Positions 2,789 through 55,424 of a stretch of 64,000 bases of DNA are shown here, piece after piece. Each line of letters opens with the position of its first letter. Within the stretch, counting starts at the first letter, position 1. The stretch lies in the IMG/VR virus record IMGVR_UViG_3300013901_000001. One strand, written 5' to 3'. This DNA is from a virus. The position numbers and the translations under genes were made by a program. The notes beneath the pieces are model-generated. The model was not told where the DNA came from and did no database searches. It saw only the letters and a list, made by a program, of their open reading frames with translations.

Positions 2789-3064
2789 GAGGGTGCTTCC
2801 GTGAATCAGATGAACATATTTGATTTAATTAGAAAACCTATACAGATTACAAAGCCGATTCGTCTCATAGAATTATTTGCCGGGTATGGAAGCCAATCAA
2901 TGGCATTGAAAAGAATTGGTGCAAACTTTGAGCATTATAGGGTTGTGGAATTTGATAAGTTTGCCATTGCAAGCTATAACGCAGTGCACGGAACAAATTT
3001 TCAAGCATTGGACATTACAAAAATTCATGCAAATGATTTGAACATCTGTGATACAGAATCATTC

Positions 3065-3087
3065 ACTTACTTACTTACTTACTTACT
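3065..3087 (+). repeat. tetranucleotide repeat (ACTT)x5.75 inside the C5-MTase gene
   Basis: Read directly as acttacttacttacttacttact. The reading frame changes from that of 2801.. to that of 3048.. across it. Loss of one unit would join the frames. Confidence 0.9.
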
Positions 3088-3560
3088 CGTTTCCTTGCAC
3101 AGATCTTTCCGTAGCTGGGAAACGAGCCGGAATGAGTAAAGAAAGTGGAACAAGATCTGGACTTCTGTGGGAAGTGGAAAGAATACTTACTGAAATCAAA
3201 GAAGAAAAAGAAGAACTTCCACAGATTTTATTTATGGAGAATGTACCACAAGTGCATAGTTCGGATAATATGCCGGATTTTAGAAAATGGATAGATTTTC
3301 TTGAAAGCCTTGGTTACAAAAATTATTATCAGGACCTTAACGCAAAAAATTATGGAGTGGCGCAAAACCGTGAACGATGTTTTATGTTTTCGTTTCTTGG
3401 AGAATATAATTACCATTTTCCACAGCCGTTTCCTCTTGAAAAGAAGTTAAAGGATTATTTGGAAGATAATGTTGATGAAAAGTATTACATCAATAATGAA
3501 AAATCCAAAAAGTTGATAAAGCAGCTTATTGACAACGGAACACTTCCTCAACACAATCTT

Positions 3561-3617
3561 GAGAGCAGAGCAGAGCAGAGCAGAGCAGAGCAGAGCAGAG
3601 CAGAGCAGAGCAGAGCA
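3561..3617 (+). repeat. pentanucleotide repeat (GAGCA)x11 inside the C5-MTase gene
   Basis: Read directly. Eleven full units span 3563-3617. The upstream frame ends 12 nt after the tract and the TRD-bearing frame continues. Gain of one unit would join them. Confidence 0.9.
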
Positions 3618-3906
3618 AACTTGCGTTGACGGAACAATCTGCAATCCACAAAGAAGAAAGATTGCGAACTGTATCATGGCAAGAGACTACGGAATCTCAA
3701 CACAGTCACAGACAGGAAACCTTGTTGTTAAAAGGAATGTCAAGTAATAAATACGATCCATATGCAGAAAAAGCAGATATTTCAAGAACCATATGCGCTA
3801 GGGATTATAAGGGCTTAAATAATTTTGGACAGAATGGAGTAATTGAATGGAAATCATAGGAAGTATATACACGGGAGTTTCAGACGGATATCAGCACGGA
3901 ATCTTA

Positions 3907-3916
3907 GGGGGGGGGG
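3907..3916 (+). repeat. G10 homopolymer inside the C5-MTase gene
   Basis: ttaggggggggggatt. G10 to G9 would join ...YQHGILGGG to ISRCVKAENHD. Confidence 0.9.
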
Positions 3917-4030
3917 ATTTCCCGTTGTGTCAAAGCTGAAAATCATGATTTAGGAGTAGTTATGGCAGATGTGAATGTTTTAGGTAGTCTTGAATCGAAA
4001 TTTGAGAGTACCAGTAGAATTTATGGAGTA

Positions 4031-4039
4031 GGGGGGGGG
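4031..4039 (+). repeat. G9 homopolymer inside the C5-MTase gene
   Basis: gtagggggggggtgag. G9 to G10 would join ...RIYGVGGG to VSPTLSTMQGG. Confidence 0.9.
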
Positions 4040-4601
4040 TGAGTCCTACGTTAAGCACAATGCAAGGTGGTAATCAAAAACCGAAAATACTTGAAGTAAA
4101 ACAGCTAGGATTTATGGAAAACGGAACTGGAAAACATCAGTCCAATACTGTATACGATGAAAACTCATTATCCCCTAGCATAACAACGGTTGAAAATGGT
4201 GGTACGCAACAGATTAAAATATGCGAAAGCCAAATAGTTGCCATGCGTGGAAGAAATCCAGATAATCCGTCCGACAGAACTGCAGGAAGTCCAACGGAAC
4301 AAAGACTTGAATTAAATAAACATGAAACAAGTAATTGCATTACAAGTGTTCAAAAAGACAATATGGTTATGGAAAATCCCACATATCGCATAAGAAAACT
4401 TACCCCGAGAGAATGCGGTAGACTTATGGATGTATCAGACGAAGATATTTCCAAAATGGAAAAGGTAAATAGCAACACGCAGCTATACAAACAGTTTGGA
4501 AATTCTATTGTAGTAGGTGTTATGTGCGAGATGTTTAAAAATTTAAACATAAATCAATAAGACCGGACAGTTCCGGTTTGCATAGTTTGGAGGAAAAGAA
4601 A

Positions 4602-5168
4602 ATGAAAGTAAAAAGAACAGTAACAATGAAAGTTAGCCATTTTGGGGTTGGAGACCAGATTACCGTAAAACTTCCAGAATACGGAAAGTTTACGGCTATG
4701 GCACATGAGATCACGGACAAAGGAACATTATTTATCTTCGATGATTGTGTTTGCGAAAGATGGATGAACAAAGAAAATACGAATGAAGGTGGATATTTGG
4801 AATCTGACCTTAGAAAGTTTGTAACACAGGAGTTGCTAAAGGCATTTCCAGATAAACTGCTTGTAAGGATGGTAAAGGACGATAACGGAGATCTACTTTC
4901 CATTCCGACTTACGGACAGGTTTTGGGTAAAGACTGGGACGATGAGTGGGATGAGAAAAACATTGAGATCGACAAGAGAGAACAATTGCCACTGATGCAG
5001 AAAAGAAAGAACCGGATTGCAGATTTACAAAACGAATGGACATGGTACTGGTTGCAAAATAAAGTCCGGTCGTCGTCTCACTTCGCTCGCGTCGATGGCG
5101 ATGGCCGTGCGGCCAACTACGGCGCGTCTGGCTCCGGCGGGGTTCGTCCGGCTTTCCTAATCAAGTAA
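4602..5168 (+). CDS. DGR target protein 1 (small protein with C-terminal variable C-type-lectin-like region)
   Basis: ATG at 4602 after ggaggaaaag. The C-terminus WYWLQNKVRSSSHFARVDGDGRAANYGASGSGGVRPAFLIK is encoded by VR1. Paralog of 11318..11887. Confidence 0.85.
   Translation: MKVKRTVTMKVSHFGVGDQITVKLPEYGKFTAMAHEITDKGTLFIFDDCVCERWMNKENTNEGGYLESDLRKFVTQELLKAFPDKLLVRMVKDDNGDLLSIPTYGQVLGKDWDDEWDEKNIEIDKREQLPLMQKRKNRIADLQNEWTWYWLQNKVRSSSHFARVDGDGRAANYGASGSGGVRPAFLIK
5064..5150 (+). repeat. DGR variable region VR1
   Basis: 87-nt hand alignment to TR 53002..53088. 19 differences, 18 at TR adenines. Confidence 0.85.
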
Positions 5169-5177
5169 TCATTAATC

Positions 5178-5196
5178 CGCGCCCCTTGTGGGCGTG
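5178..5196 (+). promoter_or_regulatory. GC-rich hairpin downstream of VR1 (DGR homing-associated stem-loop candidate)
   Basis: cgcgccc-cttgt-gggcgtg, 7 bp including one G-T pair. Identical copy after VR2 and a compensated copy after VR3. Confidence 0.6.
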
Positions 5197-5233
5197 GAAA
5201 TGGAAGTAAATTGAAGATTAATGGAGGTAAACC

Positions 5234-5542
5234 ATGAAATATTTAATTGAATTAGAGCCAATCAAAGGAACAAACCTTTATAAGGCGAAGGGATTTAACA
5301 CACTGGTTTTTGATGAATACGGATTGCAACAGCTTACACCGGTTGAAGAGTTTCATAGGATTCCGGTAGTCGGAGATACCATAAGAACAGAAAACGGAAC
5401 CACCCTTTATGAATTTAGAGGTTACGACGAAAACGGAAGAACCAATGCGGTAAATATAACAAATGGATCGTATGTGAATTTGAGAAGCGACCATATCATC
5501 GTTGTAGACGATAAAACTAATCCGGAAAAAATAGAGTGCTAA
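5234..5542 (+). CDS. hypothetical protein
   Basis: ORF track. ggaggtaaacc precedes the ATG. Confidence 0.55.
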   Translation: MKYLIELEPIKGTNLYKAKGFNTLVFDEYGLQQLTPVEEFHRIPVVGDTIRTENGTTLYEFRGYDENGRTNAVNITNGSYVNLRSDHIIVVDDKTNPEKIEC

Positions 5543-5558
5543 AGGAGAACGATGCAGA

Positions 5559-6143
5559 TTGAGTTATCAAGATATAAGAAAGCAAAAGGCGATAGAGCAG
5601 AAGAACCGGAAACGCCTGTTGGAAGTTAACGGGAGCCTTGATGATAGTAGCGGAATTTACTTTTTGACACGCACGGACGAAAACGGCATTAAATACGCCT
5701 ACATCGGACAGGCAAAGCACATTCTCACAAGGCTTGCACAGCACCTTGTCGGTTATCAGCATATCGACCTCTCGTTGAAGTCTCATGGTTTGTATTCTGT
5801 TGATAATATTTACGGTTGGAAGATTGGGTTTCTGCATTTTCCGTTAGAAAAACTGGACGAAAAAGAACAATATTACATAAGGCAGTATGCAGTGAATGGT
5901 TATCAGCTTCGGAACAAAACCGGTGGCGGTCAAGGAAAAGGGAAAGAGAAGATTGACGAATATCGACCGGCGAAAAGCTATTATGACGGCTTAAAACAGG
6001 GCAGAAAGAACCTTGCGAGGGAATTGTCCTGTATCATTGAAAAACACCTTGTTATTTCTTTGAAAGCGGAGAAACAGGGAAATAAGGTTTCACAGAAGCA
6101 GTACGAAAAGTTTATGGATTTGCTAAAGGTTGGTGATGAATGA
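5559..6143 (+). CDS. GIY-YIG domain nuclease
   Basis: SGIYFLTRTDENGIKYAYIGQAKHILTRLAQH (GIY ... YIG) followed by YYIRQY..GYQLRN. Confidence 0.7.
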   Translation: MSYQDIRKQKAIEQKNRKRLLEVNGSLDDSSGIYFLTRTDENGIKYAYIGQAKHILTRLAQHLVGYQHIDLSLKSHGLYSVDNIYGWKIGFLHFPLEKLDEKEQYYIRQYAVNGYQLRNKTGGGQGKGKEKIDEYRPAKSYYDGLKQGRKNLARELSCIIEKHLVISLKAEKQGNKVSQKQYEKFMDLLKVGDE

Positions 6144-6318
6144 CATGGAAGAGATCAAAGACGAAAGAGAGTATTGCGAATGGGAAGAGGTTTATACACC
6201 GAAAACACTTCCGTTTTTCAATACTTCATGTGGAAAAATTAGATTAAATTATTCCACAGGTTATGATATTTACTGCAATGCTTGCGGAAAGAAAATCAAG
6301 TTGATTAAGAAAAAATAA
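6130..6318 (+). CDS. small zinc-ribbon-like protein
   Basis: Cys pairs (YCEWE...NTSCGK...YCNACGKK). Overlaps the upstream stop. Confidence 0.4.
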   Translation: MVMNDMEEIKDEREYCEWEEVYTPKTLPFFNTSCGKIRLNYSTGYDIYCNACGKKIKLIKKK

Positions 6319-6370
6319 AGAAAGGAATAAGGTTGTGCGCACATAAAACCATGGTTTCCTTTCAAGAGAA

Positions 6371-7747
6371 ATGGATTACGAAGAGTTTTTAAAGAATAAA
6401 AGATTTGTTTTAGAAAGTAGTGGATTCGATATTGATAAATCCCAATTAAATCCGATGCTATACGACTTTCAGAAAGACATAGTTCGGTGGGCATTGAAGA
6501 AAGGAAAAGCCTGTATATTTGCAGATTGCGGACTTGGGAAAACACCTATGCAGTTATCGTGGGCGCATCAAGTTCACATGCATACTGGTGGGGATGTTCT
6601 TATTCTTACACCATTAGCTGTTGCCGAACAGACAAAGCGAGAGGCTGAAAAATTCGGATATGATGCAAAAGTAGTTGATAAACAGGATGATTGCATCAAC
6701 GGAATAAATATAACGAACTATGAAAAGCTGGACAGGTTTGCTGCGAATCATTTTTCCGGAATTGTTCTTGATGAGAGCAGTATTTTGAAATCTTACAGTG
6801 GAAAAGTAAGAACTGCCATTATTCAGAATTTCCATGAAGTTCCTTACAAATTAGCTTGCACAGCTACTCCAGCACCAAACGATTATATGGAATTGGGGAA
6901 TCATTCGGAATTTTGTGGAGTGATGACAAGACCAGAAATGCTATCAATGTTCTTTGTGCATGATGGTGGAGAAACATCGAAATGGAGATTGAAAGGTCAT
7001 GCAGAGGATGTGTTCTGGCAGTGGCTATCTACATTTAGCGTATTTGTTGATAATCCGAACAATATCGGATACGAGATTGATGGATATAATCTACCAGAAC
7101 TTAAAATAAAAGAAATAATTGTGGATGGGGATACGACAACAACAGAGAACTTGACATTAACAGAACGGAGACAAGCGAGAAAGGATAGCTTGCAAAAAAG
7201 ATGCGAATGTGCATCAGAACTTGTAAATAATTCTAATGAGCAATGGCTTGTATGGTGTGACTTGAATGATGAAAGCCATAAGCTGCATGAATTAATCGAA
7301 GAAAGCGTTGAAGTTGAGGGAAGTGATAAAGAACAACACAAGTCTTCAGCCATGCTTGATTTTAGCAATGGGAATATAAAGTGTCTTGTTACAAAACCTA
7401 AAATTGCCGGATTTGGGATGAATTGGCAGAACTGTCATAACATGATTTTTACCGGACTTTCGGATAGTTATGAGCAGTATTATCAGGCTCTCCGCAGATG
7501 TTGGAGATTTGGCCAGAGTGAACAGGTGAATGTTTATATTATCATTTCATCAAAAGAAGGATGCGTGAAAGAAAACATTGAAAGAAAGCAGAAAGACTTT
7601 GCAAAAATGCAGAAAGAAATGACAGAACTCACAAAGGAAATAACAAAAAAAGAACTAAGGAGTACGTGTAGGATTTCCACACCATATGAACCGCAAATAC
7701 ATCTAACTTTACCGATGTGGGATGAATTTAAGAAAGGAAATGAATAG
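6371..7747 (+). CDS. SNF2/DEAD-like superfamily 2 helicase
   Basis: Walker A ADCGLGKT, motif II LDESS, C-terminal helicase lobe (KPKIAGFGMNWQNCHNMIF...RCWRFGQ). Confidence 0.8.
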   Translation: MDYEEFLKNKRFVLESSGFDIDKSQLNPMLYDFQKDIVRWALKKGKACIFADCGLGKTPMQLSWAHQVHMHTGGDVLILTPLAVAEQTKREAEKFGYDAKVVDKQDDCINGINITNYEKLDRFAANHFSGIVLDESSILKSYSGKVRTAIIQNFHEVPYKLACTATPAPNDYMELGNHSEFCGVMTRPEMLSMFFVHDGGETSKWRLKGHAEDVFWQWLSTFSVFVDNPNNIGYEIDGYNLPELKIKEIIVDGDTTTTENLTLTERRQARKDSLQKRCECASELVNNSNEQWLVWCDLNDESHKLHELIEESVEVEGSDKEQHKSSAMLDFSNGNIKCLVTKPKIAGFGMNWQNCHNMIFTGLSDSYEQYYQALRRCWRFGQSEQVNVYIIISSKEGCVKENIERKQKDFAKMQKEMTELTKEITKKELRSTCRISTPYEPQIHLTLPMWDEFKKGNE

Positions 7748-8675
7748 AATGGACGTTTTAGCACAGACAATAGAAAAGAATTATGCAATTTACAATGGAG
7801 ATAGTTGCGAACTGATTAAGGCAATTCCGAATAATAGCATTCATTACACTATTTTTAGTCCACCATTTGCAAGCCTATATACTTACTCCAACAGTGATAG
7901 GGATATGGGAAACAGCAAGGGAGATGATGAATTTTACGAACACTTTAAATTCCTAGCAACAGAACTTTATAGGGTAACGATGCCTGGACGATTGCTTTCG
8001 TTTCACTGCATGGATTTACCACTAATGAAAGAAAGGGATGGCGTGATCGGATTAAAAGATTTCCCGGCACTTGTAAGACAGATTTTTGAAGATTGCGGTT
8101 TTATTTATCATAGTAAGGTGACGATTTGGAAAAATCCGGTCACAGAAATGCAGAGAACTAAGGCACATGGGCTTCTTCACAAGCAAATAAGGAAAGACAG
8201 TACAATGAACAGGCAAGGAATCCCAGATTACATTGTTACGATGCGGAAACCGGGCGAGAATCCAGAGAGAGTATCGCATACACATGAAACATTTCCTGTT
8301 GATGTGTGGCAGAATTACGCAAGTCCTGTATGGATGGATATTCGGCAGTCTGATACATTGCAAAAGAAGTCTGCAAGGGAAAACAAGGATGAGCGTCATA
8401 TCTGTCCGTTACAATTAGAAGTAATTCAAAGATGCATTGAATTATGGACGAATAAAAATGACATAGTTTTAGATCCGTTTGCCGGAATTGGCAGCAGCCC
8501 ATACGTTGCTGTTACGATGGGGAGACGTGGCATAGGATTTGAACTTAAAGAAAGCTACTATAAACAGGCTGTTGCAAACCTTGAAGCAGCAGTAAGTTTT
8601 AATAAGATGGATTGCCCGGTAGGTCAAATGTCAATTGAGGATTTTTTAGGGGAGAATGTCTTGCAGTGCAGTTAA
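7722..8675 (+). CDS. N6-adenine/N4-cytosine DNA methyltransferase (beta class)
   Basis: Catalytic SPPF (IFSPPFAS) lies upstream of the AdoMet motif VLDPFAGIGSS. The start may instead be the ATG at 7749. Confidence 0.85.
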   Translation: MNLRKEMNRMDVLAQTIEKNYAIYNGDSCELIKAIPNNSIHYTIFSPPFASLYTYSNSDRDMGNSKGDDEFYEHFKFLATELYRVTMPGRLLSFHCMDLPLMKERDGVIGLKDFPALVRQIFEDCGFIYHSKVTIWKNPVTEMQRTKAHGLLHKQIRKDSTMNRQGIPDYIVTMRKPGENPERVSHTHETFPVDVWQNYASPVWMDIRQSDTLQKKSARENKDERHICPLQLEVIQRCIELWTNKNDIVLDPFAGIGSSPYVAVTMGRRGIGFELKESYYKQAVANLEAAVSFNKMDCPVGQMSIEDFLGENVLQCS

Positions 8676-8745
8676 CCATATTCGATTATGAATAAAAATA
8701 TTCTGATTGGAATAAAAAAATTCATGGAACTTGAAAGGAGTAAAA

Positions 8746-9309
8746 ATGCCAAAACATTATGATGATCCACAGGAAATTGCAAGAATGATGTTGGAATTGA
8801 AGCGTTTACGGCAGACGGCGCAGAGAAGTCCGTTTACAGGATTGCTTACCATTTTCTGCTATGTCTTGTGGAAAGATTACAAATACAGTCAGACGAAACT
8901 TGCGAAATTCTGCGAGGACTTTTCAAAGTACGATGCAGAATATGACGGACAGAATATTTCCAAACTTGATAACGGGTTATGGGATTATGCCGATTGGAAA
9001 GTGGAATTTACGCCGTATACTGAAAAGGATTATCCGTTTTACAAGTCCCCTATGGCACAGAAAGTAGTACGGGAACAGGTGAAAGCCAACAACGAAATTA
9101 ATGAGAAAGCGACGAGGTATTTAACCTACGGATTTACGGTTTTGATGAATGACGGAACGAAGAAACAGAAGTTGACAAACATCAAAGATAAAATCCAGAA
9201 GCGCATTGATGAAGTGACCGCCGATGAAAGAGACAAGTGCATCATGGATTTGTGGAAAGAGTTGGTTGACGAAGCCGGAATTTACATTGAGAAACCGGTG
9301 ATCGATTAA
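8746..9309 (+). CDS. hypothetical protein
   Basis: ATG at 8746 after gaaaggag, inside listed ORF 8731..9309. Confidence 0.55.
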   Translation: MPKHYDDPQEIARMMLELKRLRQTAQRSPFTGLLTIFCYVLWKDYKYSQTKLAKFCEDFSKYDAEYDGQNISKLDNGLWDYADWKVEFTPYTEKDYPFYKSPMAQKVVREQVKANNEINEKATRYLTYGFTVLMNDGTKKQKLTNIKDKIQKRIDEVTADERDKCIMDLWKELVDEAGIYIEKPVID

Positions 9310-9328
9310 AGGAAAGGAGTTGTTATGA

Positions 9329-10024
9329 GTGAAAGGAAAACGAACGTTTGACATAAAGCTTGTTAGTTCCGACGCTTTTCTTAATATGCCGATATCTGCA
9401 CAATGTTTATTCTTCCACCTTTGCATCAGGGCAGACGATGAAGGATTTGTTGACCGTGTAAAAAGCATTATAAAACAGTGCGGTGCTACGGATGAAGATT
9501 TGGAAGTGTTGAAGAAAAAGAGATACGTTCTTACATTTCCAGAATCGAATGTCATCGTGATTAAACACTGGAAACTTCACAATCTGATTGACAAGGACGA
9601 GTTTGAACCTACGGTATATGCCGAGGAAAAGTCAAAACTGTACGAAAAAGAGAACGGTGCTTATACCTTTGATTCACGCAAGGCTGAAAAGTTGAGTGAA
9701 AAATTGAGTATCTGTGAACGGAAAACTCAATTAGATACTGTAAAAGAAGTGATTTCCTATTTAAACGAGAAATGCGGTACGAAATACCGTTACTCCACGC
9801 TTGCTAATCAGAGAGGAATCGTTGCAAGGCTTAATGAGGGAAATTACACCGTTGAAGATTTTAAGGCAGTGATTGATAAAAAGGTGGCTGATTGGGGCAA
9901 TAACCCTACAATGTGCACCTATTTACGACCGGAAACTTTGTTCGGAAACAAGTTTGAAAGCTATCTTAATCAGTTATCTTCTTCCGGAAAAACTGAATTT
10001 GACGAATGGGGTGATTGCCGTTGA
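9329..10024 (+). CDS. phage replisome organizer / DnaD-like replication protein
   Basis: C-terminal block VISYLNEKCGTKYRYS...IVARLNEGNYTVEDFKAVIDKKVADWGNNPTMCTYLRPETLFGNKFESYL resembles the conserved phage replication-protein C-terminus (from memory). Confidence 0.6.
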   Translation: MKGKRTFDIKLVSSDAFLNMPISAQCLFFHLCIRADDEGFVDRVKSIIKQCGATDEDLEVLKKKRYVLTFPESNVIVIKHWKLHNLIDKDEFEPTVYAEEKSKLYEKENGAYTFDSRKAEKLSEKLSICERKTQLDTVKEVISYLNEKCGTKYRYSTLANQRGIVARLNEGNYTVEDFKAVIDKKVADWGNNPTMCTYLRPETLFGNKFESYLNQLSSSGKTEFDEWGDCR

Positions 10025-10647
10025 CACGTGATGAAACAATAGAAATTTTGATGATGGTTCAAGCAGCTTACCCGAATTTTAACGTACCGGACAAAAAAGT
10101 CACGGTCAACACATGGTTTCTCTTCTTTGAGAATTACTCGGTTGATGTGATTAAGGGAGCATTAATGGCATACATCACAAGTGATAAGAACGGATTCGCT
10201 CCGGCAATCGGACAGATTATCGAAATTGCAGAGTCCATGACAAACGCACAGGAACTTGACAGTATGGCGGCGTGGTCTCTTGTCAGTAAGGCATTGCGAA
10301 ATGGATATTATCACGCAAGGGAAGAGTTTGAAAAACTGCCGAAACTGGTACAACAAGCGGTCGGAAGTCCGGACAATCTTCGAAATTGGAGTACATCGGA
10401 TTATAGTGCGATTGAAACCGTGATTCAAAGTAACTTCTTACGGTCTTACCGGATATGCGTTGAACGTGATAAGAAGATGCGTTGTATGCCGGAACAAATC
10501 AGAAACCAGATCGAAAACAATATACCTGTTTTTCATCTTCCGGAATCAGAACCGAAACCGATGATTGAGCAAAATAAAACGGACGGAATTTCAGAAAAAA
10601 CGGAAAAGTTGCTGGAAGAGTTTAAAAGAAAGGAAATGATGAATTGA
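10015..10647 (+). CDS. putative helicase loader (G39P-like)
   Basis: N-terminal pattern ETIEILMMVQAAYPNFNV...TVNTWFLFFENYSVDVIKGALMAYI resembles the SPP1 G39P family (from memory). Sits directly after the replisome organizer. Confidence 0.5.
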   Translation: MPLTRDETIEILMMVQAAYPNFNVPDKKVTVNTWFLFFENYSVDVIKGALMAYITSDKNGFAPAIGQIIEIAESMTNAQELDSMAAWSLVSKALRNGYYHAREEFEKLPKLVQQAVGSPDNLRNWSTSDYSAIETVIQSNFLRSYRICVERDKKMRCMPEQIRNQIENNIPVFHLPESEPKPMIEQNKTDGISEKTEKLLEEFKRKEMMN

Positions 10648-11054
10648 TGAAAGATTATTGTATTTTCCACGAACGAATGAAAAGCAGAATGAATCTTTGT
10701 TGTATGACCGGAAGAGAACTTTCCGAAAAGACGGGAATAACAGAAGTTTCAATAAGCAGATATTTAACAGGGCAAAGAGTTCCAAAAGCGACAGAAATAA
10801 TAAAAATTGCAAATGCTTTGAATTGCTCTTGTGATTATCTTTTAGGAAAAAATCCGAAGAAAAATTTATCCGTCAAAGAAGCTATCAATATTCTTGAATT
10901 AAATAGACCTTTTGAAGAAAATGAACTTCAAAATGCGCTTGATATTGCGATCGAATCGTTAAAAATGCAAATAAAAATGGAAAAAGAATGTTCTGCTTAT
11001 GATGAGTGCCGCAAGTGTAATATTTGCCTTAGCGATTTCATTATAGAAAAGTAA
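10644..11054 (+). CDS. XRE-family HTH protein
   Basis: MTGRELSEKTGITEVSISRYLTGQRVPKATEIIKIANALNCSCDYLLG. Confidence 0.7.
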   Translation: MMKDYCIFHERMKSRMNLCCMTGRELSEKTGITEVSISRYLTGQRVPKATEIIKIANALNCSCDYLLGKNPKKNLSVKEAINILELNRPFEENELQNALDIAIESLKMQIKMEKECSAYDECRKCNICLSDFIIEK

Positions 11055-11096
11055 ATGAACGGAAATATGAATATCCGGTATTGAGAAAGGATCTTT

Positions 11097-11300
11097 ATGA
11101 AGCAAACATTTATAGTAGGAATCGAAACTAATCACAAAAGTTTTAATTCTTGGATTGCGGAACATGACAAGACAGTAAGAGAGAAAGCACTCGATGATGC
11201 GATTCTTTATTTTGAAAAGCACGCACACGAGATATACGATCATGTGAGTGCAAGAGATTTTATTTGTGACAGGTTGGAAGAACTGAAAAACAAAAAATAA
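11097..11300 (+). CDS. hypothetical protein
   Basis: ORF track only. Confidence 0.45.
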   Translation: MKQTFIVGIETNHKSFNSWIAEHDKTVREKALDDAILYFEKHAHEIYDHVSARDFICDRLEELKNKK

Positions 11301-11317
11301 AAATGGAGGGTTTTAAA

Positions 11318-11887
11318 ATGAAAGCATGGAGAAAAGTAAAAATGGAGATCAAAAACTATAAGGTCGGAGATCAGATCGCGGTGAAACTCAAAGGTTTTGG
11401 GAAATTTACGGCTACGGCGCAGAGAGTTTATGACGATGGAAAAACGCTGTTTCTTTTCGATAACTGCGTTGCAGAACGGCATATGAACGAAAACGGTTCA
11501 AATTCCGGAGGTTTTTATGAATCCGACTTATGCAAGTGGATGAATACAAAATTGGTGAAAACTTTTCCTGCTAAACTTCTTGACCGCATGATTTATACGG
11601 ACGAAGAGCATGAATGTCTGCTTCGAATTCCGACAAGAAAGGAAATGTTCGGAGAGAATGAATATAGCGAAAATTACGAACCTGATTTAGACAAACAGCT
11701 TGAACTTATGAAAGACAGAAAAAATCGTGTATGCTCACTTCCTGATGATGAATATGCATGGTATTGGTTGATGAACGCGAATATCCGGTCGTCGTCTGGC
11801 TTCGCTTGTGTCCCTAGCCGTGGCACTGCGCTCACCGGCGACGCGTCTGCCTCCCTCGGGGTTCGTCCGGCTTTCCTAATCAAGTAA
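11318..11887 (+). CDS. DGR target protein 2 (paralog of 4602..5168)
   Basis: ATG at 11318 aligns with the paralog start (MKAWRKVKMEIKNYKVGDQ vs MKVKRTVTMKVSHFGVGDQ). The C-terminus WYWLMNANIRSSSGFACVPSRGTALTGDASASLGVRPAFLIK is encoded by VR2. Confidence 0.85.
   Translation: MKAWRKVKMEIKNYKVGDQIAVKLKGFGKFTATAQRVYDDGKTLFLFDNCVAERHMNENGSNSGGFYESDLCKWMNTKLVKTFPAKLLDRMIYTDEEHECLLRIPTRKEMFGENEYSENYEPDLDKQLELMKDRKNRVCSLPDDEYAWYWLMNANIRSSSGFACVPSRGTALTGDASASLGVRPAFLIK
11783..11869 (+). repeat. DGR variable region VR2
   Basis: Hand alignment to TR. 19 differences, all at TR adenines. Confidence 0.85.
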
Positions 11888-11896
11888 TCATTAATC

Positions 11897-11915
11897 CGCG
11901 CCCCTTGTGGGCGTG
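11897..11915 (+). promoter_or_regulatory. GC-rich hairpin downstream of VR2
   Basis: Same sequence as 5178..5196. About 60 nt from the VR 3' end through the hairpin is identical in both loci. Confidence 0.6.
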
Positions 11916-11953
11916 GAAATGGAAGTAAAATTAAAATTTCGGAGGTAAAGTAG

Positions 11954-12541
11954 ATGGCACGATATAGAGCAAAATCATGTGAAATTGAAGCAATTCAATG
12001 GACTGATAATACAAATGAAATAAAATCATTTTGTGGAAATAGTTGCACATATTCCGTAGAAGAACAGTGCATGGGAAGTTGGAAAGGCATTCCGATCGAG
12101 AGATTGGTTATTCACACATTGGAAGGAGATATGGTTGTAAGCAGAAACGACTACATCATAAAAGGATTGAAAGGTGAATTTTATCCATGCAAGCCAGATG
12201 TATTTAACCAAAAGTATAAATTAATAAATGATACTATGGAAATACAAGAAGAGCAGAGATGGATACCGGTAACTGAAAGGCTGCCGGAAGAACTTACACC
12301 AGTAAATATTACGTGGATAAATAGAAATCCTGAACAATATTATGCGGATATAAAGGATGTTCCTTTTTCCGCTACAGGAGTTTTTCATCGCGGAAAGTGG
12401 TATTGGTGGTCGGTAGTAGTTGTTGATTATCTTTCGGAATATGGAAGATATGACATGGATTTAGTAGATAAAGATATTGAAATTGTAGCATGGCAACCAT
12501 TACCGGATCCCTACAAAGGAGAAAATAACCACAATATGTAG
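11954..12541 (+). CDS. DUF551-like domain protein
   Basis: RWIPVTERLPEE...VAWQPLPDPY pattern typical of DUF551 (from memory). Confidence 0.55.
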   Translation: MARYRAKSCEIEAIQWTDNTNEIKSFCGNSCTYSVEEQCMGSWKGIPIERLVIHTLEGDMVVSRNDYIIKGLKGEFYPCKPDVFNQKYKLINDTMEIQEEQRWIPVTERLPEELTPVNITWINRNPEQYYADIKDVPFSATGVFHRGKWYWWSVVVVDYLSEYGRYDMDLVDKDIEIVAWQPLPDPYKGENNHNM

Positions 12542-12568
12542 CAATCCCGGATCGCAAGATTTGGTATG
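12526..12568 (+). repeat. 43-bp direct repeat, copy 1 (imperfect palindrome)
   Basis: taaccacaatatGtagcaatcccggatcgcaagatTttgGtatg. Matches 24986..25028 at about 40 of 43 positions, same orientation. Confidence 0.8.
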
Positions 12569-12956: not shown

Positions 12957-13163
12957 CATGAGCAAAACATATTATAAACCGCTTACGCCAAAATTAAGAG
13001 AAGAAATTAATGATGAGATAATTTCCAATATGGCAGAGTTACAAACTTGTCAAAGTAATGTGTTTGTAAACGCGCAGATGATTGGATATGAAGCGTTTTA
13101 AACTATTATCAATGCACTGCCAGACGGATATTTAATTCCATTTGAAAGAGAGTGAGGTATAGC

Positions 13164-13802
13164 ATGGAATATGGATATGTTAGAGTTTCTTCTAAAGAAC
13201 AAAATGAAGCTAGGCAACTTGACGCGCTACGCAAACAGGGCATAGAGGATTGTAATATCTACACGGACAAGCAATCCGGAAAAGATTTTAATAGACCAAA
13301 ATACAAAACTTTATATCGAAAATTAGGAAAAGGAGATATTTTGTACGTAAAAAGCATTGATCGTATGGGGAGAAATTACGACGAGATAATTCAAGAATGG
13401 CGTAGAATTACGAGATTCCGTGAGGCTGATATTGTAGTTCTAGATATGCCATTACTTGATACGAGACGAGGAAAGGATCTCATGGGTACATTCTTAAGTG
13501 ACATTGTTTTACAAGTTCTTTCTTTCGTGGCAGAAAATGAACGTACCAACATTAAGCAAAGGCAGGCAGAGGGAATTGCTGCAGCAAAAGCAAGGGGAGT
13601 GAAATTTGGTAGACCACCATTGCCAATACCGGAAAACTTTTATCAGATGTACAAAGACTGGCGGGCAGGGAAAATCACAATAGAAGAAGCTGCAAAGGCT
13701 TGTAATATGTGCCCTAAGACATTTTATAGTAAAGCTGTAAAATATGAAAGAGAGGAACAAGATGAACCAGTGTTGTGGAACGTGCAAATGGCACAGTTTT
13801 GA
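13164..13802 (+). CDS. small serine recombinase (resolvase/invertase family)
   Basis: MEYGYVRVSSKEQNEARQ catalytic-Ser N-terminus, ...DRMGRN..., C-terminal HTH (ITIEEAAKACNMCPKTFYSK). Confidence 0.85.
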   Translation: MEYGYVRVSSKEQNEARQLDALRKQGIEDCNIYTDKQSGKDFNRPKYKTLYRKLGKGDILYVKSIDRMGRNYDEIIQEWRRITRFREADIVVLDMPLLDTRRGKDLMGTFLSDIVLQVLSFVAENERTNIKQRQAEGIAAAKARGVKFGRPPLPIPENFYQMYKDWRAGKITIEEAAKACNMCPKTFYSKAVKYEREEQDEPVLWNVQMAQF

Positions 13803-14346
13803 AAATATCAGTGACGGTTGGGTATGTGTGAACAATGACAGTGATTATTGCTCGGACTGGACGGAATATGAGGACAGTTGCGAAGAATGGGGAGGGAAAG
13901 GAGTAGCCATGACAGAGAATGAAACAATAGAAATAATTGGCAATATTCCTATTGATGGAAAAGACAAGTGTTATACCATAGAGCAGTATCAGGACGCAAA
14001 AACAAAAGCAATCGAAGCACTGGAAGAGGTTAAGCAGTACCGTAGTCTTGGAACACCGAAAGAATGCCAGACCGCAATGGAACTTTATAAGGAAATGCAT
14101 AAGCGGAAGTTTACACTTGAAGCCGTGGAAGAGTACATGAAGTTTGAGGACGAACTTGTGGAACGCGGACTTACATTTAGTGACCTGATTGATCTTATGG
14201 AGAAGAATACACCGAAAAAACCGAAGTTTAACGGTAAAAACTGGTACAGATGTCACAATGGTTGCGAGGTTCATAAAAAGGAATTTGAAATGGATCGGTA
14301 TTGTCCGAAGTGCGGACAAAAAATTGGCTGGGAAGGGGTTAGATGA
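13762..14346 (+). CDS. hypothetical Cys-rich protein
   Basis: MNQCCGTCKWH... and C-terminal CHNGCEVH...YCPKCGQK zinc-ribbon-like pairs. Confidence 0.5.
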   Translation: MNQCCGTCKWHSFENISDGWVCVNNDSDYCSDWTEYEDSCEEWGGKGVAMTENETIEIIGNIPIDGKDKCYTIEQYQDAKTKAIEALEEVKQYRSLGTPKECQTAMELYKEMHKRKFTLEAVEEYMKFEDELVERGLTFSDLIDLMEKNTPKKPKFNGKNWYRCHNGCEVHKKEFEMDRYCPKCGQKIGWEGVR

Positions 14347-14848
14347 TGAAACGAAAAGAAGATTTTATGGATATTGACAAAGCAATAAGGATAGCACAAG
14401 AATACGGAAAGTGGATTTCGGTAGATAAGAGACTTCCAAAAAGAATAAGGGGGAAAAATGGAGAATATCTTCCGTCAAGTGATTATGTTGCTATATTGTC
14501 TGATTATGGAGGTGTATTTATTACTAAATACAATTTTGATTTTAAGACTTGGATAGGAAGATCGGATTATAAAATTACCCATTGGAAGCCAGTTAGGAAT
14601 AAAAAATATAGGCGCAGAAAACTAATTGATTTTATGTGGATTCCTGTTTCAAAAAGGCTACCGAAAGAAGATACTTATTGCACAAGGGATCAAGTAAACC
14701 TTGTTTAGTTGCGGCTGGAAAATACGGAGTTTTTGATGCATATTATTATTTTGAAAACCATGAATGGGTTTTTCTTGAAGAAGAATGCTATATTTCTACA
14801 AATGAAGTCACCCACTGGATGCCAATGCCAAAAGCACCGGTAAAATAA
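14343..14848 (+). pseudogene. tandem DUF551-like protein interrupted by a -1 frame change
   Basis: 14343..14708 holds WISVDKRLPK...ITHWKPV and then WIPVSKRLPKEDTY. The module continues in ORF 14636..14848 (LVAAGKYGVFDAYYYFENHEWVF...THWMPMPKAP). Confidence 0.5.
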
Positions 14849-14884: not shown

Positions 14885-15115
14885 ATGAAAGGGAAACGGC
14901 TTATGAAGTTTTCAAGACTTACAAAGCCGGAACTTGAAAAAATACTTCAAAATGCCAATTTTACGAAAGACGAAGAAGAAATATTTAAGGACCTGTCTAG
15001 GGGAATTTCTGAAAAAGAAATATCCCTTAGACATTCTATATCCGTAAGTACGGTTGAAAGAAGAACACGCCGTATCAAGGAAAAAATAAAAAGATTAAAC
15101 AGGAGTGAGAAATGA
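14885..15115 (+). CDS. small sigma-70 region-4-like HTH regulator
   Basis: EEEIFKDLSRGISEKEISLRHSISVSTVERRTRRIKEKI. Overlaps the integrase start. Confidence 0.5.
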   Translation: MKGKRLMKFSRLTKPELEKILQNANFTKDEEEIFKDLSRGISEKEISLRHSISVSTVERRTRRIKEKIKRLNRSEK

Positions 15116-16359
15116 GTCTTTCTGATAACGAATTATTGAAGTATGCCGTTGAAAATGGTATGATTGACACGGCACTTTTACGAAAAGAATTAGAAATGCG
15201 CAGAAGAGAGGAGATATTATCAAAACACCCATATCGTATATGGCAAGGAAATGACGGAAGGTGGAGAACATATTTACTTCCGGAAGACGGTAAAAGGAAA
15301 ATGGTAAACCGTCAGACCGAAAAGGATTTAAAGGATGTTGTTGTTAGCTTTTATGAAGAAAACGAGAAGCATTCTTTTAAAAACCGATACGATGTATGGG
15401 TACAAAGACAAGAAAATTGTGGACGAGCAGAAAACACAATATACAAATACGAAACGGACTATGATCGTTTTTTCAAAGGAGATCCTTTTGAAAGAATGAA
15501 AGTAGAAAATATTACAGACGAAGATATTTCTTTAATGATTATTGACCTTTTAAAAAGAAAAGATATTCCATACAAGGCATTAAAGGGAATGTTTGGGTAC
15601 ATGAACGGAGTCTTTGAAAAGTGTATCATTGACAAAATTATCAAAGAAAATCCTTGTAAATACATAGATTTGCCGATATATAAGAAATACTGCAAGGAAT
15701 CAGGAGATAACAGAGTCGAAAGCAGAACATTATCTAGGGACGAAAGTAAAAGCCTTTTGGAGAAACTGGACGATTCTTACCAAAAGAAACCGAATTACAT
15801 TGTTCAATACGCTTTGGAATTTTCAATGTATACCGGAATGAGAGTGGGGGAGTTATCAGGGTTAAGTTGGGATTGCATTGATTTTGAAAGGAAGACATTG
15901 ACTATTTGCAAATCAGAAAAATTTAATCGGAAAAGCAAGACGTATTATATTTCTTCAACTAAAAATGACAAAACAAGGGTAATTCCTCTTACAAAACAAA
16001 TGGAAGAAGTGCTTTTAAAAGTCCGAAGTATAGAAGAGGAAAATGGGTTTTTAAGCGAATTTGTTTTTTCTGATTCAAACGGGAGAGTTCATTGCAGAAG
16101 AATTTCTGATTGTGCAAGAAACAGAACAATGTCGAAAGAATTTTCCAAGCCAAAAAGTATACACGCAATAAGGCGAACTGTAAACTCGGAATTACGTTGC
16201 AAAGGTGTTCCGGCAGTCGTAGCTGCATCACTTATTGGTAATACGGAAAGAGTCAACGAAAGCAATTACAGCTATGACATATCCGGAATGGAATATAAGT
16301 CTTCCGTATTCGCTGAAATAAACAAAGATATTCGTGATTACAGAAATAATCAAAAGTAA
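15112..16359 (+). CDS. int: tyrosine site-specific integrase
   Basis: Catalytic-domain landmarks (MYTGMRVGELSGLSWDCID, KSIHAIRRTVNSEL, TERVNESNYSYD). Followed directly by arm-type repeats and a tRNA 3'-end core. Confidence 0.85.
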   Translation: MSLSDNELLKYAVENGMIDTALLRKELEMRRREEILSKHPYRIWQGNDGRWRTYLLPEDGKRKMVNRQTEKDLKDVVVSFYEENEKHSFKNRYDVWVQRQENCGRAENTIYKYETDYDRFFKGDPFERMKVENITDEDISLMIIDLLKRKDIPYKALKGMFGYMNGVFEKCIIDKIIKENPCKYIDLPIYKKYCKESGDNRVESRTLSRDESKSLLEKLDDSYQKKPNYIVQYALEFSMYTGMRVGELSGLSWDCIDFERKTLTICKSEKFNRKSKTYYISSTKNDKTRVIPLTKQMEEVLLKVRSIEEENGFLSEFVFSDSNGRVHCRRISDCARNRTMSKEFSKPKSIHAIRRTVNSELRCKGVPAVVAASLIGNTERVNESNYSYDISGMEYKSSVFAEINKDIRDYRNNQK

Positions 16360-24985: not shown

Positions 24986-25028
24986 TAACCACAATATATA
25001 GCAATCCCGGATCGCAAGATATTGTATG
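24986..25028 (+). repeat. 43-bp direct repeat, copy 2 (imperfect palindrome)
   Basis: taaccacaatatAtagcaatcccggatcgcaagatAttgtatg. Internal inverted arms acaatat...atattgt. Confidence 0.8.
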
Positions 25029-27451: not shown

Positions 27452-27475
27452 AACACTACTGATATACCTAAACAA

Positions 27476-27593
27476 TCTCAACGTAAATAAAGCCAATAAA
27501 CTATCGTTTAGCCAATACATTGTTTTTATAACACTCTCAACGTAAATACTACTAATAACTTACCGTGTAGCCAATAACTTATATTTATAACAC
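27476..27593 (+). repeat. two degenerate 59-bp tandem direct repeats
   Basis: Both units start tctcaacgtaaata, contain tagccaata and end tttataacac. Confidence 0.7.
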
Positions 27594-34331: not shown

Positions 34332-34529
34332 ATGAAATACAAACCAAAAACCATATACTGTCCACAATGCAACCGCAAGGTAGGAACACATGATGGACGA
34401 TCAACAAACAATCTTATTTGCAGATGTAAGAAGTGTAAAAAGAGAGTTATTTATTATCCAGCAACTATGGAAACGGAAGTAAAGCCACTTCCGAAAAGAA
34501 CCACAAGCAGCGGAATGACATTTATCTAG
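34332..34529 (+). CDS. Com-like zinc-finger protein
   Basis: YCPQCNRKVG...LICRCKKCKKRVIY arrangement resembles Mu Com (from memory). Confidence 0.45.
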   Translation: MKYKPKTIYCPQCNRKVGTHDGRSTNNLICRCKKCKKRVIYYPATMETEVKPLPKRTTSSGMTFI

Positions 34530-34537
34530 GAGTAATT

Positions 34538-36073
34538 ATGCAGACAGGAAGAACCGTTTTATACACTGATGTGCCAGAAATTACATACGATAACGTTATT
34601 GAAGTCTTAAGAAAAGCAATGTCGGGGCATACAGTCAATTCTGCAAGAATAAAGTTTTTGCTTGAATATGATGCCGGATATCAGCCGATTTTAAGAAAGA
34701 AAATAGTACGTCCTGAAATTGATTGTCAATGCGTAGATAACGTGGCAAATGAAATAACAGAATTTTGGTGTGGTTTTTGTGGAGGAAATCCGATTACCTT
34801 AGTCCAGAATGGAGATAGCACTAATCCTAGAATTGCAGAAGGAATCAAGGCATTAAATAAAGAATACGATTTAGCAAAGATAAAAACCAAAACGCAAGAA
34901 ACATTTCGATATATGTTTGTTTGCGGAATTGGCTATGTACTGATTGACGTAAATACGGAATGGAAAAAAGGAAAAAGCCATTTTACTTACGATGTTCTTG
35001 ATCCTAGAACAGCATTCGTTGTTAAGTCAAGTTATTATCCGGATCACAGGGTAATGCTTGGAGTTACTTATAGACATGATGATTCATCCGGAAATACATA
35101 CTTTACTTGCTATAGCAAAGATGAGCGATATGAAATCAAGAATCAAGTAGAGCATATGGAAAGAAGCGGAGAAATCAATTTATTAGGAACCATTCCAATT
35201 ATTGAATATTTCAGATCCTATGATCGTATGGGAGTATGGGAAAGACAGATTCCGGAAATGGATAACTTGAATTTAATGATATCTGATTTTTCCAATGATG
35301 TAGACCAGAACACACAGGCTATTTTTCATTCAAACGATATAGAATTTCCTAAAGTTACTGTAGAAAATGAAGATGGAACAGTTACAGAAGAAGTTAAAAA
35401 GCCCAAAAACGGTGACTGGCTACAAACTTTTACTACGTCAGAAGGAAAAACACCAATTATTGAACCAATATCAATAGATTATGATTATTCTGGAATGCTG
35501 AATAACATACAAGTAAGAAGGCAAATGATATTGGAAAAATGCAACGTTCCACAAAGAAATGATAATTCCGGTGGAAGTACGGGAGTTGCCATGAGTGACG
35601 CTACCGGGTGGAGTCATGCGGAAATGGCAGCTTCAAAGCAGCAGATGATTATTGATTCCTGCAAAATGGAAGAAGTAGAAGTTGTTCTCGCAGCTATTAA
35701 TATTTCTCAAGAAGTGGAACAGGAGAATCCACTTAGGGAACTTAGCTTGGAAGATATAGAGCCAAACATTAAACGGCAAAAAACATATGAAATGTCTACA
35801 AAAGTTAATTCTATGGCAACTTTGTTAAGCCATGGATTTAGCCTTGAAGATGCTGTCAATTCAATTCCTTTCTTTGATGATCCAAATGAGGTTTGCTTGA
35901 GAAGCGGAGAAGGAATAAAGAAATATCAAGATAGCATATTTAATAAAACTTCACAGAATCAAGCGCAAGGTGGAGATGGAGAACAAAAACCAAACTCTGA
36001 CAGGACAATGCAGGATCTTTCCGATCAGGTTTCCAATAGTCCGGTAATTGATAAGAGCCGAACAGATAAGTAG
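34538..36073 (+). CDS. portal protein
   Basis: 511 aa. Lies between terL and the head-morphogenesis gene. Confidence 0.7.
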   Translation: MQTGRTVLYTDVPEITYDNVIEVLRKAMSGHTVNSARIKFLLEYDAGYQPILRKKIVRPEIDCQCVDNVANEITEFWCGFCGGNPITLVQNGDSTNPRIAEGIKALNKEYDLAKIKTKTQETFRYMFVCGIGYVLIDVNTEWKKGKSHFTYDVLDPRTAFVVKSSYYPDHRVMLGVTYRHDDSSGNTYFTCYSKDERYEIKNQVEHMERSGEINLLGTIPIIEYFRSYDRMGVWERQIPEMDNLNLMISDFSNDVDQNTQAIFHSNDIEFPKVTVENEDGTVTEEVKKPKNGDWLQTFTTSEGKTPIIEPISIDYDYSGMLNNIQVRRQMILEKCNVPQRNDNSGGSTGVAMSDATGWSHAEMAASKQQMIIDSCKMEEVEVVLAAINISQEVEQENPLRELSLEDIEPNIKRQKTYEMSTKVNSMATLLSHGFSLEDAVNSIPFFDDPNEVCLRSGEGIKKYQDSIFNKTSQNQAQGGDGEQKPNSDRTMQDLSDQVSNSPVIDKSRTDK

Positions 36074-42192: not shown

Positions 42193-42221
42193 CTATGCCG
42201 TCTATTTTGCGAGGTGAGATT

Positions 42222-50973: not shown

Positions 50974-51546
50974 ATGGCAGTTAACAAAGTAGTTTACGGA
51001 GAAGAGGTACTTATTGATTTAACAGGAGATTCCGTTACGGAAGATACTCTTGCAAAAGGAATCACTGCACATGATAAGTCCGGCGCAGTTATTACCGGTA
51101 CAAGCACAAAAGATGTGGATTCCGCAGATGCAACAGCGGCAGTGGCTGAAATTCTTCTCGGAAAAACCGCATACGCAAGAGGTCAGAAGCTGACAGGTAC
51201 AATGCCGAATAACGGAGCGGTTACAGGAGAAATCACTGATAAAAATACGGATTACACGGTTCCTCTTGGTTTCCATGACGGATCCGGAAAAGTCGGAATC
51301 GCAACGGCAGAAAAGGCAAAGATTATTGCCGGAAATATTAAGCAAGGCGTAACCCTTCTTGGAGTTGAAGGGACATATTCTGGTGAGGGGGTAAATTTAC
51401 AGGCTAAAACGGTTACTCCGTCAAAAACCGCACAGACGGTACAGGCAGATGCCGGATACGATGCCTTATCATCTGTTACTGTAAATGCGATTCCTTACAC
51501 GGAAACAGATAATGCCGCCGGAGGAAAGACGGCAACAATCGGTTAA
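50974..51546 (+). CDS. tail fibre/receptor-binding module protein
   Basis: Shares its N-terminal module with the next gene (MAVNKVVYGEEVLIDLTGDSVTEDTLAKGITAHDKSGAVITG vs MAINKVEYSGNTLIDLTSDSVTPESLLSGVTAHDASGNLIIG). Confidence 0.55.
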   Translation: MAVNKVVYGEEVLIDLTGDSVTEDTLAKGITAHDKSGAVITGTSTKDVDSADATAAVAEILLGKTAYARGQKLTGTMPNNGAVTGEITDKNTDYTVPLGFHDGSGKVGIATAEKAKIIAGNIKQGVTLLGVEGTYSGEGVNLQAKTVTPSKTAQTVQADAGYDALSSVTVNAIPYTETDNAAGGKTATIG

Positions 51547-52400: not shown

Positions 52401-52410
52401 TCGTCAATCA

Positions 52411-52427
52411 CCGCCCCATGTGGGCGG
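52411..52427 (+). promoter_or_regulatory. GC-rich hairpin downstream of VR3
   Basis: ccgccc-catgt-gggcgg. Confidence 0.6.
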
Positions 52428-52450
52428 AGTTGACGAAGAAAGGAGCATAT

Positions 52451-53001: not shown

Positions 53002-53088
53002 ATCCAGTCGTCGTCTAACTTCGCTAATGTCAATAGCAATGGCAATGCGAACAACAACGACGCGTCTAACTCCAACGGGGTTCGTCCG
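53002..53088 (+). repeat. DGR template repeat (TR)
   Basis: atccagtcgtcgtctAActtcgctAAtgtcAAtAgcAAtggcAAtgcgAAcAAcAAcgAcgcgtctAActccAAcggggttcgtccg. It has 24 adenines, mostly in AAY codons. Confidence 0.85.
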
Positions 53089-55414: not shown

Positions 55415-55424
55415 GGTGGTAGAT

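Follow-up and report, generated by a model that had tools for sequence, protein, structure and literature searches.

We analyzed a diversity-generating retroelement (DGR) and its target genes in a 64,000-nucleotide (nt) stretch of viral DNA, the IMG/VR record IMGVR_UViG_3300013901_000001, and refer to this whole stretch as the window. The window was 100% identical to a 67,423-bp metagenomic contig, whose terminal overlap (k = 119) closes it into a circle of 67,304 bp, with 3,304 nt connecting window position 64000 back to position 1. A second sample yielded a 67,353-bp contig with its break point elsewhere. The genome is that of a temperate siphovirus-like phage of gut Clostridia; the signs of a temperate life style are an integrase gene (15112-16359) and a divergent repressor region near 57-58 kb, and prophage copies of its relatives were found mostly in Lachnospiraceae and also in other Clostridia. 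A GenBank phage megablast with the early region gave no match, and a protein search matched only Fontainebleau (ON453893), an Acutalibacter phage.

One template repeat and three variable repeats

The core of the DGR, i.e., an avd-like gene, the template repeat (TR) and the gene for a reverse transcriptase (RT), occupies 52.4-54.4 kb, where it is flanked by tail genes (tape measure, 42195-46526) and an endolysin gene (55416-56735). Its targets were identified from variable repeats (VRs), which we compared by ungapped alignment to the TR at 53002-53088, with significance expressed as a hypergeometric P. The features of the system are as follows.

4602-5168, plus strand: T1, stand-alone DUF6273 protein of 188 amino acids, remote DGR target 1 (Pfam PF19789; phrog_21980, E=6.6e-54)
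5064-5150, plus strand: VR1, 19 mismatches to the TR, 18 on TR adenines and 1 on a T (P=1.2e-12); orthologs vary at those codons only
5139-5210, plus strand: 3' homing module of T1, made up of a GC-rich end resembling an initiation of mutagenic homing (IMH) sequence, the stop codon and a GC hairpin (core 5176-5198); 100% identical to 11858-11929
11318-11887, plus strand: T2, stand-alone DUF6273 protein of 189 amino acids, remote DGR target 2 and paralog of T1 (PF19789, E=2.5e-11; phrog_21980, E=5e-45)
11783-11869, plus strand: VR2, 19 mismatches to the TR, all 19 on TR adenines (P=6e-15)
11858-11929, plus strand: 3' homing module of T2 (hairpin core 11895-11917), 100% identical to 5139-5210
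51561-52400, plus strand: T3, tail-side DGR target of 279 amino acids with two parts, an N-terminal module and, after it, a DUF6273-like domain to which the whole of T1 is homologous
52296-52382, plus strand: VR3, 21 mismatches to the TR, 19 on TR adenines; hairpin 52401-52436 follows
52451-52978, plus strand: avd-like accessory gene (match to phrog_3206, 'Avd protein of DGR', at E=1e-4; the gene located 5' of the Fontainebleau TR is 53% identical to it)
53002-53088, plus strand: TR, encodes IQSSSNFANVNSNGNANNNDASNSNGVRP; 3' hairpin absent
53224-54447, plus strand: DGR RT (Pfam RVT_1, E=7e-13; phrog_1423, E=1e-50)

The TR is 87 nt long and contains 24 adenines, which are spread over 14 codons. 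The sequence-only reading of this DNA had paired VR1 and VR2 with the TR codon for codon and had counted an adenine bias by hand. The formal alignments upheld both observations, since they were gap-free and in frame along the full repeat, with VR1 and VR2 at the 3' ends of their respective open reading frames (ORFs), and returned the same counts on TR adenines. Over all three VRs, P for the adenine bias ranged from 6e-15 to 1e-12, and none of the VRs contained a stop codon. The repeat scan, run on both strands, recovered VR1 and VR2 and also revealed VR3, a third target that the sequence-only reading had overlooked; no fourth VR was found in the 3.3 kb of the genome beyond the window. Chance or an assembly artefact was ruled out, because the repeats were highly significant and the identical sequence was assembled independently in two samples.

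These adenine-specific mismatches bear out the proposal that the single DGR of the tail/lysis region has T1 and T2 as remote targets, and we consider it practically certain that both are active targets. With T3 included, the genome carries one DGR with three targets, T3 being adjacent to the cassette and T1 and T2 being reached in trans. The separations of 48 kb and 41 kb given at first for VR1 and VR2 were wrong; they are an artefact of linearization, because the genome is circular. On the circle, and likely in prophage order, VR1 lies 19,366 nt and VR2 26,085 nt downstream of the TR (19.4 and 26.1 kb). T3 is located directly upstream of the avd-like gene, which is followed by the TR and then by the RT gene. 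The translated RT shows IGNQLAQ and YTDD motifs. The avd-like ORF scored weakly against phrog_3206 and had no Pfam match; its location 5' of the TR agrees with expectation.

The TR and the VRs have in common a GC-rich, homing-like end, GGGGTTCGTCCG, beyond which TR and VRs diverge, and a GC hairpin is present 3' of all three VRs at an equal offset. The hairpins of VR1 and VR2 have a 9-bp stem (-11.4 kcal/mol, z of -2.1 and -2.4) and that of VR3 is predicted at -15.8 kcal/mol (z = -3.8), whereas no hairpin follows the TR, where folding of the 3' sequence gave z = +1.0. Between T1 and T2, identity extends over 72 nt from GGGGTTCGTCCG onward, including the stop codon and 42 nt beyond it, which agrees with the shared 3' module described earlier for these two genes, and the same elements recur at VR3. 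Outside the 72-nt module, blastn detected no similarity between the T1 and T2 genes, and synonymous sites of the two scaffolds were saturated. Because the scaffolds have diverged beyond the reach of blastn and yet 72 nt are identical, the homing module is held identical by constraint or gene conversion. Thus, it is reasonable to suppose, as the sequence-only reading did, that the module was duplicated together with its gene, but its identity must have been maintained afterwards. In addition, identical VR alleles (e.g. SSSAFANVDSDGSANGVGASDSGG) were observed in T1-type and T2-type proteins of different contigs, which suggests either that the paralogs exchange VRs by way of their identical flanks or that assemblies are chimeric.

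In phage BPP-1, a layout of GC-rich homing end and downstream hairpin directs mutagenic homing. By analogy, the TR RNA would be reverse-transcribed with adenine-specific errors, and the resulting complementary DNA (cDNA) would replace any VR bearing the GC-rich homing end and the downstream GC hairpin, a combination present at all three VRs and missing at the TR. A single template could in this way rewrite three VRs, with two of the replacements taking place in trans across 19-26 kb; the trans-homing step is one that we infer from the BPP-1 system. We have very little doubt about the core of this scheme, in which three VRs with homing end and hairpin are overwritten from a single template whose copying introduces errors at adenines.

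The T1 and T2 proteins and their diversification in nature

T1 and T2 scored 35.7 and 44.2 bits, respectively, against PF19789, for which the gathering cut-off is 23.5 bits, and their amino acid sequences were 50% identical, as would be expected from their earlier description as paralogs. Residues 36-188 of T1 align with residues 113-279 of T3 at 31% identity. Only T3 has an extra N-terminal region, the first 42 residues of which are 60% identical to the start of the tail-region ORF 50974-51546. Because T1 aligns with T3 minus this N-terminal module, T1 and T2 are predicted to be the bare binding domain of the tail-side target. Both are single-domain proteins that lack the T3-type N-terminal module, the feature by which Mtd-like tail attachment was judged. 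Furthermore, no signal peptide was found in either protein, in agreement with what had been seen at first inspection, their maximum N-terminal hydropathy being 0.38 and 0.28, whereas a secreted protein encoded by this phage reached 2.95.

An AlphaFold2 model of T1, built from an alignment of 84 homologs, was confident except in the VR (predicted local distance difference test [pLDDT], 82.7; predicted TM-score [pTM], 0.81). It replaced an earlier model from a 40-sequence alignment, which was discarded (pLDDT 57). The only Foldseek matches were DUF6273 domains; among the predicted viral structures of BFVD they belonged to DUF6273 proteins of gut phages, and the neighbors there were DUF6273 domains of long tail proteins or immunoglobulin (Ig)-containing phage proteins. 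The sequence-only reading had raised a C-type-lectin or FGE fold and the absence of a virion-attachment domain as matters for structure prediction. The absence of a tail-type N-terminal module stood, while C-type-lectin, FGE and Mtd structures were not recovered by Foldseek from the PDB. This domain occurs in only one solved structure, where it forms the N-terminal domain of an IgA protease secreted by a gut bacterium (PMC12402451). Defense-system models of PADLOC matched none of T1, T2 and T3.

A profile search of 1.84 billion cluster representatives retrieved 4,252 relatives, 220 of them at E<=1e-30. Among the best 150 of the 4,252, stand-alone proteins of 161-215 amino acids numbered 87, proteins with T3-like N-terminal extensions 52, and giant repeat proteins 5. 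None of the 87 stand-alone representatives had a signal-peptide-like start, and intact full-length ORFs were kept across hundreds of clusters. T1 and T2 are each a single soluble DUF6273 domain, and the variable C-terminal surface segment could adopt roughly 10^14 sequences per protein.

Population evidence was obtained from orthologs and contigs across metagenomes, grouped in protein clusters at 90% identity. In three clusters of T1 orthologs (clusters 1, 2 and 6), each of about 12 TR-adenine codons showed 4-8 residues while the other roughly 170 positions had 0-2 alleles, giving the VR pattern SSSxFAxVxxxGxAxxxxASxSxG. The cluster to which T2 itself belongs, with 14 distinct sequences, showed 5-9 alleles at 12-13 VR codons and a single variable site elsewhere, and a second T2 cluster had the same pattern. 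At the DNA level, comparison with a 90-96% identical contig found that 50% (T1) and 92% (T2) of adenine sites differed, over a background of 7-9%. Thus, T1 and T2 are both actively diversified in nature. Outside the VR, dN/dS was 0.12-0.16, and the scaffolds are therefore under purifying selection and the genes functional. In T1-related clusters 3-5, the VRs were invariant across many contigs, one of them being nearly identical to the template (NFAYVNGNGNANHGDASNSRG); in these lineages the DGR may be inactive or the VR may have been reset recently.

Early-region placement and possible roles of T1 and T2

The sequence-only reading had located T1 and T2 among replication, methylase and regulator genes on the early-operon strand, and the annotation places them in one co-directional array. 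The array begins with Tad4, an MBL-fold hydrolase, a single-stranded DNA-binding protein (SSB), a helix-turn-helix (HTH) protein, a C5 methylase and T1. It continues with two uncharacterized ORFs, an SNF2 helicase, an N6/N4 methylase, another uncharacterized ORF, a DnaD-like initiator and a helicase loader, and it ends with an XRE regulator, a small ORF, T2, a DUF551 protein, further ORFs, a resolvase and a tyrosine integrase. The first of these genes has the following coordinates.

729-1091: Tad4 homolog, a type I Thoeris inhibitor, in the same array as T1 and 3.5 kb upstream of it (Pfam PF25186, E=2.2e-31)

The gaps to the preceding gene are 41 nt for T1 and 17 nt for T2, and the only plus-strand intrinsic terminator in 1-17 kb lies at 16.6 kb, after the integrase gene. 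A scan for promoters and terminators gave site counts at chance level, which neither supports separate transcription units nor proves co-transcription. Early co-expression of T1 and T2 with their neighbors is a reasonable inference from this gene order. Two neighbors had features of their own. The MBL-fold hydrolase that follows Tad4 (1072-1788) had a faint precomputed match to the anti-Pycsar Apyc1 family. The C5 methylase directly upstream of T1 (3048-4560) is split into 3-4 ORFs and contains an SRAEQ repeat present three times, and in a 99.6% identical contig of another sample, which differs by 4 indels over 5.2 kb, it is called as 2 ORFs; the split could reflect frameshift or phase variation, or assembly error.

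The genomic context of relatives, taken for the related loci from precomputed Pfam neighborhoods of selected homologs, was as follows.

Fontainebleau, between DNA polymerase I and helicase: small DUF6273 gene, a 45% identical ortholog; its VR and a tail-side VR match the TR by the RT gene (RT 57% identical)
Toutatis, 11505-12152, among methylases, a 3D-domain protein and a replication initiator: gp24; mismatches to the distant TR are adenine-specific
L100/L104, L102, L105 and L106 (related loci), after the lysogeny switch or in the midst of genes for helicase, primase and methylase: small DUF6273 gene

L100 and another locus, L041, contained all three elements, namely a tail-side VR, an adenine-rich TR and a small early VR that lies about 9 kb downstream of the TR; L092 showed the TR and the small early VR only, because its stored flank starts at avd. 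In every lineage inspected, the small gene was in an early/replication operon and never beside virion genes, and this early-operon placement persists across phages with unrelated replication modules. A tblastn panel that combined genes of our phage with genes of Fontainebleau and Toutatis, run against about 90 related loci, was dropped; it annotated few loci because they were too divergent. In one locus with a 64% identical T1 homolog (L008), an RT-like ORF (13701-14759) was seen in the early region, 3 kb downstream of the target. This ORF was set aside, as a TR matching that VR was not found within 10 kb.

We tentatively favor the view that T1 and T2 are non-virion binders that would be made early and aimed at a variable host component in phage-host conflict, e.g., immunity proteins, and we put its chance of being right at a little under even. 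This role is preferred because of the early-operon placement in every inspected lineage, the lack of an anchor module and of an export signal, and the counter-defense neighbors. A narrower version, in which T1 and T2 would act as intracellular hypervariable binders, an antibody-like phage repertoire produced as infection begins, with DGR variants selected to neutralize or hijack variable cytoplasmic host proteins such as those of immunity systems, is rather unlikely as stated, although an intracellular counter-defense role appears plausible. Under this version, the gene duplication would allow a single template to generate two independent specificities in addition to that of the tail adhesin.

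Several points weigh against a non-virion role. To our knowledge, every experimentally characterized phage DGR target is a virion protein, and a decoration protein of small size can attach to the virion with no anchor domain of its own. Elsewhere in phages, DUF6273 occurs in tail-fibre-like or Ig-decorated proteins (PMC10743442; also the BFVD matches described above), and two published groups read the small targets as Mtd-like receptor binders (PMC10743442; bioRxiv 10.1101/2024.10.15.618418). The label 'early' derives from gene order. The early region also contains a gene for a 3D-domain protein with a strong signal peptide (60597-61004), as does Toutatis, and therefore not all early-region genes act intracellularly. 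The L102 locus has a helicase and a methylase that are 80-87% identical to those of this phage, and its virion genes had no match to TerL, portal or major capsid protein (MCP) of this phage; the argument from mosaic modules loses weight, as its DUF6273 homolog is possibly a frozen relic. Finally, the diversification described above was observed between metagenomes, and the VR1 allele of this genome was identical in 4 assemblies, so turnover in this lineage is not necessarily fast.

The strongest alternative is that T1 and T2, despite gene positions outside the structural module, belong to the virion as accessory proteins for receptor binding or decoration, so that the phage would carry three independently diversified adhesins. 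We would not bet on it, but it is a realistic possibility, and we hold the same opinion of its structural detail, in which the DUF6273 scaffold would bind capsid or tail and show its variable face to host-surface or mucosal ligands. This alternative draws on the paralogy of T1 and T2 with the tail-side target, with which they have a TR-coded binding segment in common, as well as on the BFVD neighbors, the published receptor-binder interpretation and the virion location of the characterized DGR targets. It has to contend with the presence of the genes in early/replication operons in all inspected lineages, never by virion genes, a placement that persists despite unrelated replication modules and that Toutatis gp24 extends in parallel to a myovirus. 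Neither is it favored by the absence of the anchor module, in contrast to T3, or by the tight packing of T1 and T2, which closely follow methylase and regulator genes and show neither a promoter nor a terminator signal belonging to them. Should T1 and T2 prove to be parts of the virion, the system would be an ordinary multi-adhesin DGR.

It is improbable that T1 and T2 act outside the cell and outside the virion, as free lectin-like binders released at lysis or by the lysogen, where they might mask receptors from competing phages, prevent the adsorption of progeny to debris, or attach to mucus or immunoglobulin. The phage is temperate, the sole solved structure of the domain comes from a secreted IgA protease (PMC12402451), and secreted proteins that act on the cell wall are likewise encoded in the early regions of these phages; against this, T1, T2 and all 87 family representatives lack a signal peptide and a membrane segment. 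Least credible, and very unlikely, is that T1 and T2 are bystander or decaying copies hit through a retained homing module, either functionless or a reservoir of VR alleles for the tail-side gene, because their scaffolds are under purifying selection (dN/dS above): concerted evolution of the 72-nt module, the alleles common to T1-type and T2-type proteins and the frozen VRs of some lineages could be cited in its favor, but the ORFs are intact and full-length across hundreds of clusters, the VRs are free of stop codons, the genomic position is conserved, and the small target is retained as a core gene even where a DGR is absent (bioRxiv 10.1101/2024.10.15.618418).

Phage DGRs are understood as devices that change host range by acting through tail proteins. 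With respect to the favored non-virion role, a large and conserved family of small targets that lies in early operons next to counter-defense genes and has neither secretion signals nor anchors suggests a second, so far unexplored use of targeted hypermutation by phages, and the stand-alone form is common, with 87 such proteins among the best 150 of the 4,252 relatives retrieved. Inducible phages of cultured hosts share the architecture, namely Fontainebleau of Acutalibacter muris and Toutatis and Lelie of Faecalibacterium, and the function is thus directly testable.

Two repeats elsewhere in the window were also observed. A 43-nt direct repeat (12526-12568 and 24986-25028, 93% identical) brackets a 12.5-kb block that contains the resolvase/invertase (13152-13802) and tyrosine integrase (15112-16359) genes, and its copies could be recombination or regulatory sites. 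At 27471-27588, in the gene-poor interval that separates the early region from the packaging region, there are two tandem 59-nt units that are 78% identical.

Comparison with known systems

The sequence-only reading regarded small remote targets in the early region as unusual for a phage DGR. This was only partly right, because precedents exist in Quimbyvirus, Toutatisvirus and Lelie; the combination of two paralogous early targets with a tail-side target is new. Two-target cassettes with DUF6273 domains were described by Baykov et al. 2023 (PMC10743442), whereas the survey of Roux et al. 2021 was by its own account unable to detect remote targets (PMC8144416).

A closely related system was found in Fontainebleau, an inducible prophage of the OMM12 strain A. 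muris, which has a complete two-target DGR. Its RT (57% identical), Avd (53%), tail-side target (54%) and small target (45%) form a true ortholog set with those described here. The small target (WAK78934.1) is encoded at 9330-9899 of ON453893, and further DGR sites lie at 34380-34489 and about 35095-35215. Fontainebleau differs from our phage in its 39-kb genome, its other replication module and its single small target. In its GenBank record, this DGR has no annotation beyond 'reverse transcriptase' and hypothetical proteins, and a search of PMC10197239 for DGR terms found this DGR unmentioned.

Small DUF6273 second targets were reported in Toutatisvirus, Lelie and CP11 by studies from 2024 (bioRxiv 10.1101/2024.10.15.618418; PMC11792537), one of them 17.5 kb from its TR. 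As in the present genome, Toutatisvirus and Lelie have a single TR between avd and RT at the tail end and two VRs, in a 'large' and a 'small' DUF6273 target. On the circle, about 17.5 kb separate the second VR from the TR, and the protein that contains it is the stand-alone product of a core gene, a small DUF6273 protein (YP_009797461.1 in Toutatis). On the other hand, these are myoviruses with a Faecalibacterium host, and they have one small target rather than two paralogs. The small target belongs to another subfamily; BLASTP similarity of gp24 to T1 is limited to the VR, which is not at the extreme C-terminus. Their proximal target is Hoc-like and lies downstream of the RT, whereas T3 is on the tail side, upstream of avd.

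In Quimbyvirus, a Bacteroides phage, a second DGR target lies in a defense/counter-defense island, amid four methyltransferases and a nuclease, and a non-structural role in conflict was proposed for it (Benler et al. 2021; PMC8008677). Both systems have one target in the structural module and distal variation beside DNA methyltransferase genes, with adenine-specific variation among near-identical Quimbyvirus genomes; in our window, the adenine-diversified distal targets have the C5 methylase before T1 and the N6/N4 methylase between T1 and T2. Quimbyvirus differs in its Bacteroidota host, in the opposite-strand location of the distal target, in an RT split by frameshifts, and in having one distal target, not two.

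The avd-TR-RT cassette, adenine mutagenesis, C-terminal VR and homing end with hairpin are all features that the present DGR shares with that of BPP-1 and its target, Mtd. Mtd, however, is a 381-residue trimeric tail-fibre tip with N-terminal attachment domains, and its gene adjoins the cassette, whereas T1 and T2 are single domains of 188-189 amino acids encoded 19-26 kb away, and the fold search gave no Mtd match. Cellular DGRs of multicellular bacteria diversify cytoplasmic putative antigen sensors and are a precedent for intracellular conflict binders, although those targets are bacterial and fused to signalling or effector domains, while T1 and T2 are products of a phage and lack any further domain (PMC10907252).

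Compared with these systems, four aspects are new: the two paralogous early targets that share one template with a tail-side target; the conservation of the early-operon placement across unrelated replication modules; the size of the stand-alone, signal-less family; and the recognition of Fontainebleau, an inducible phage of a cultured OMM12 strain, as having the same architecture.

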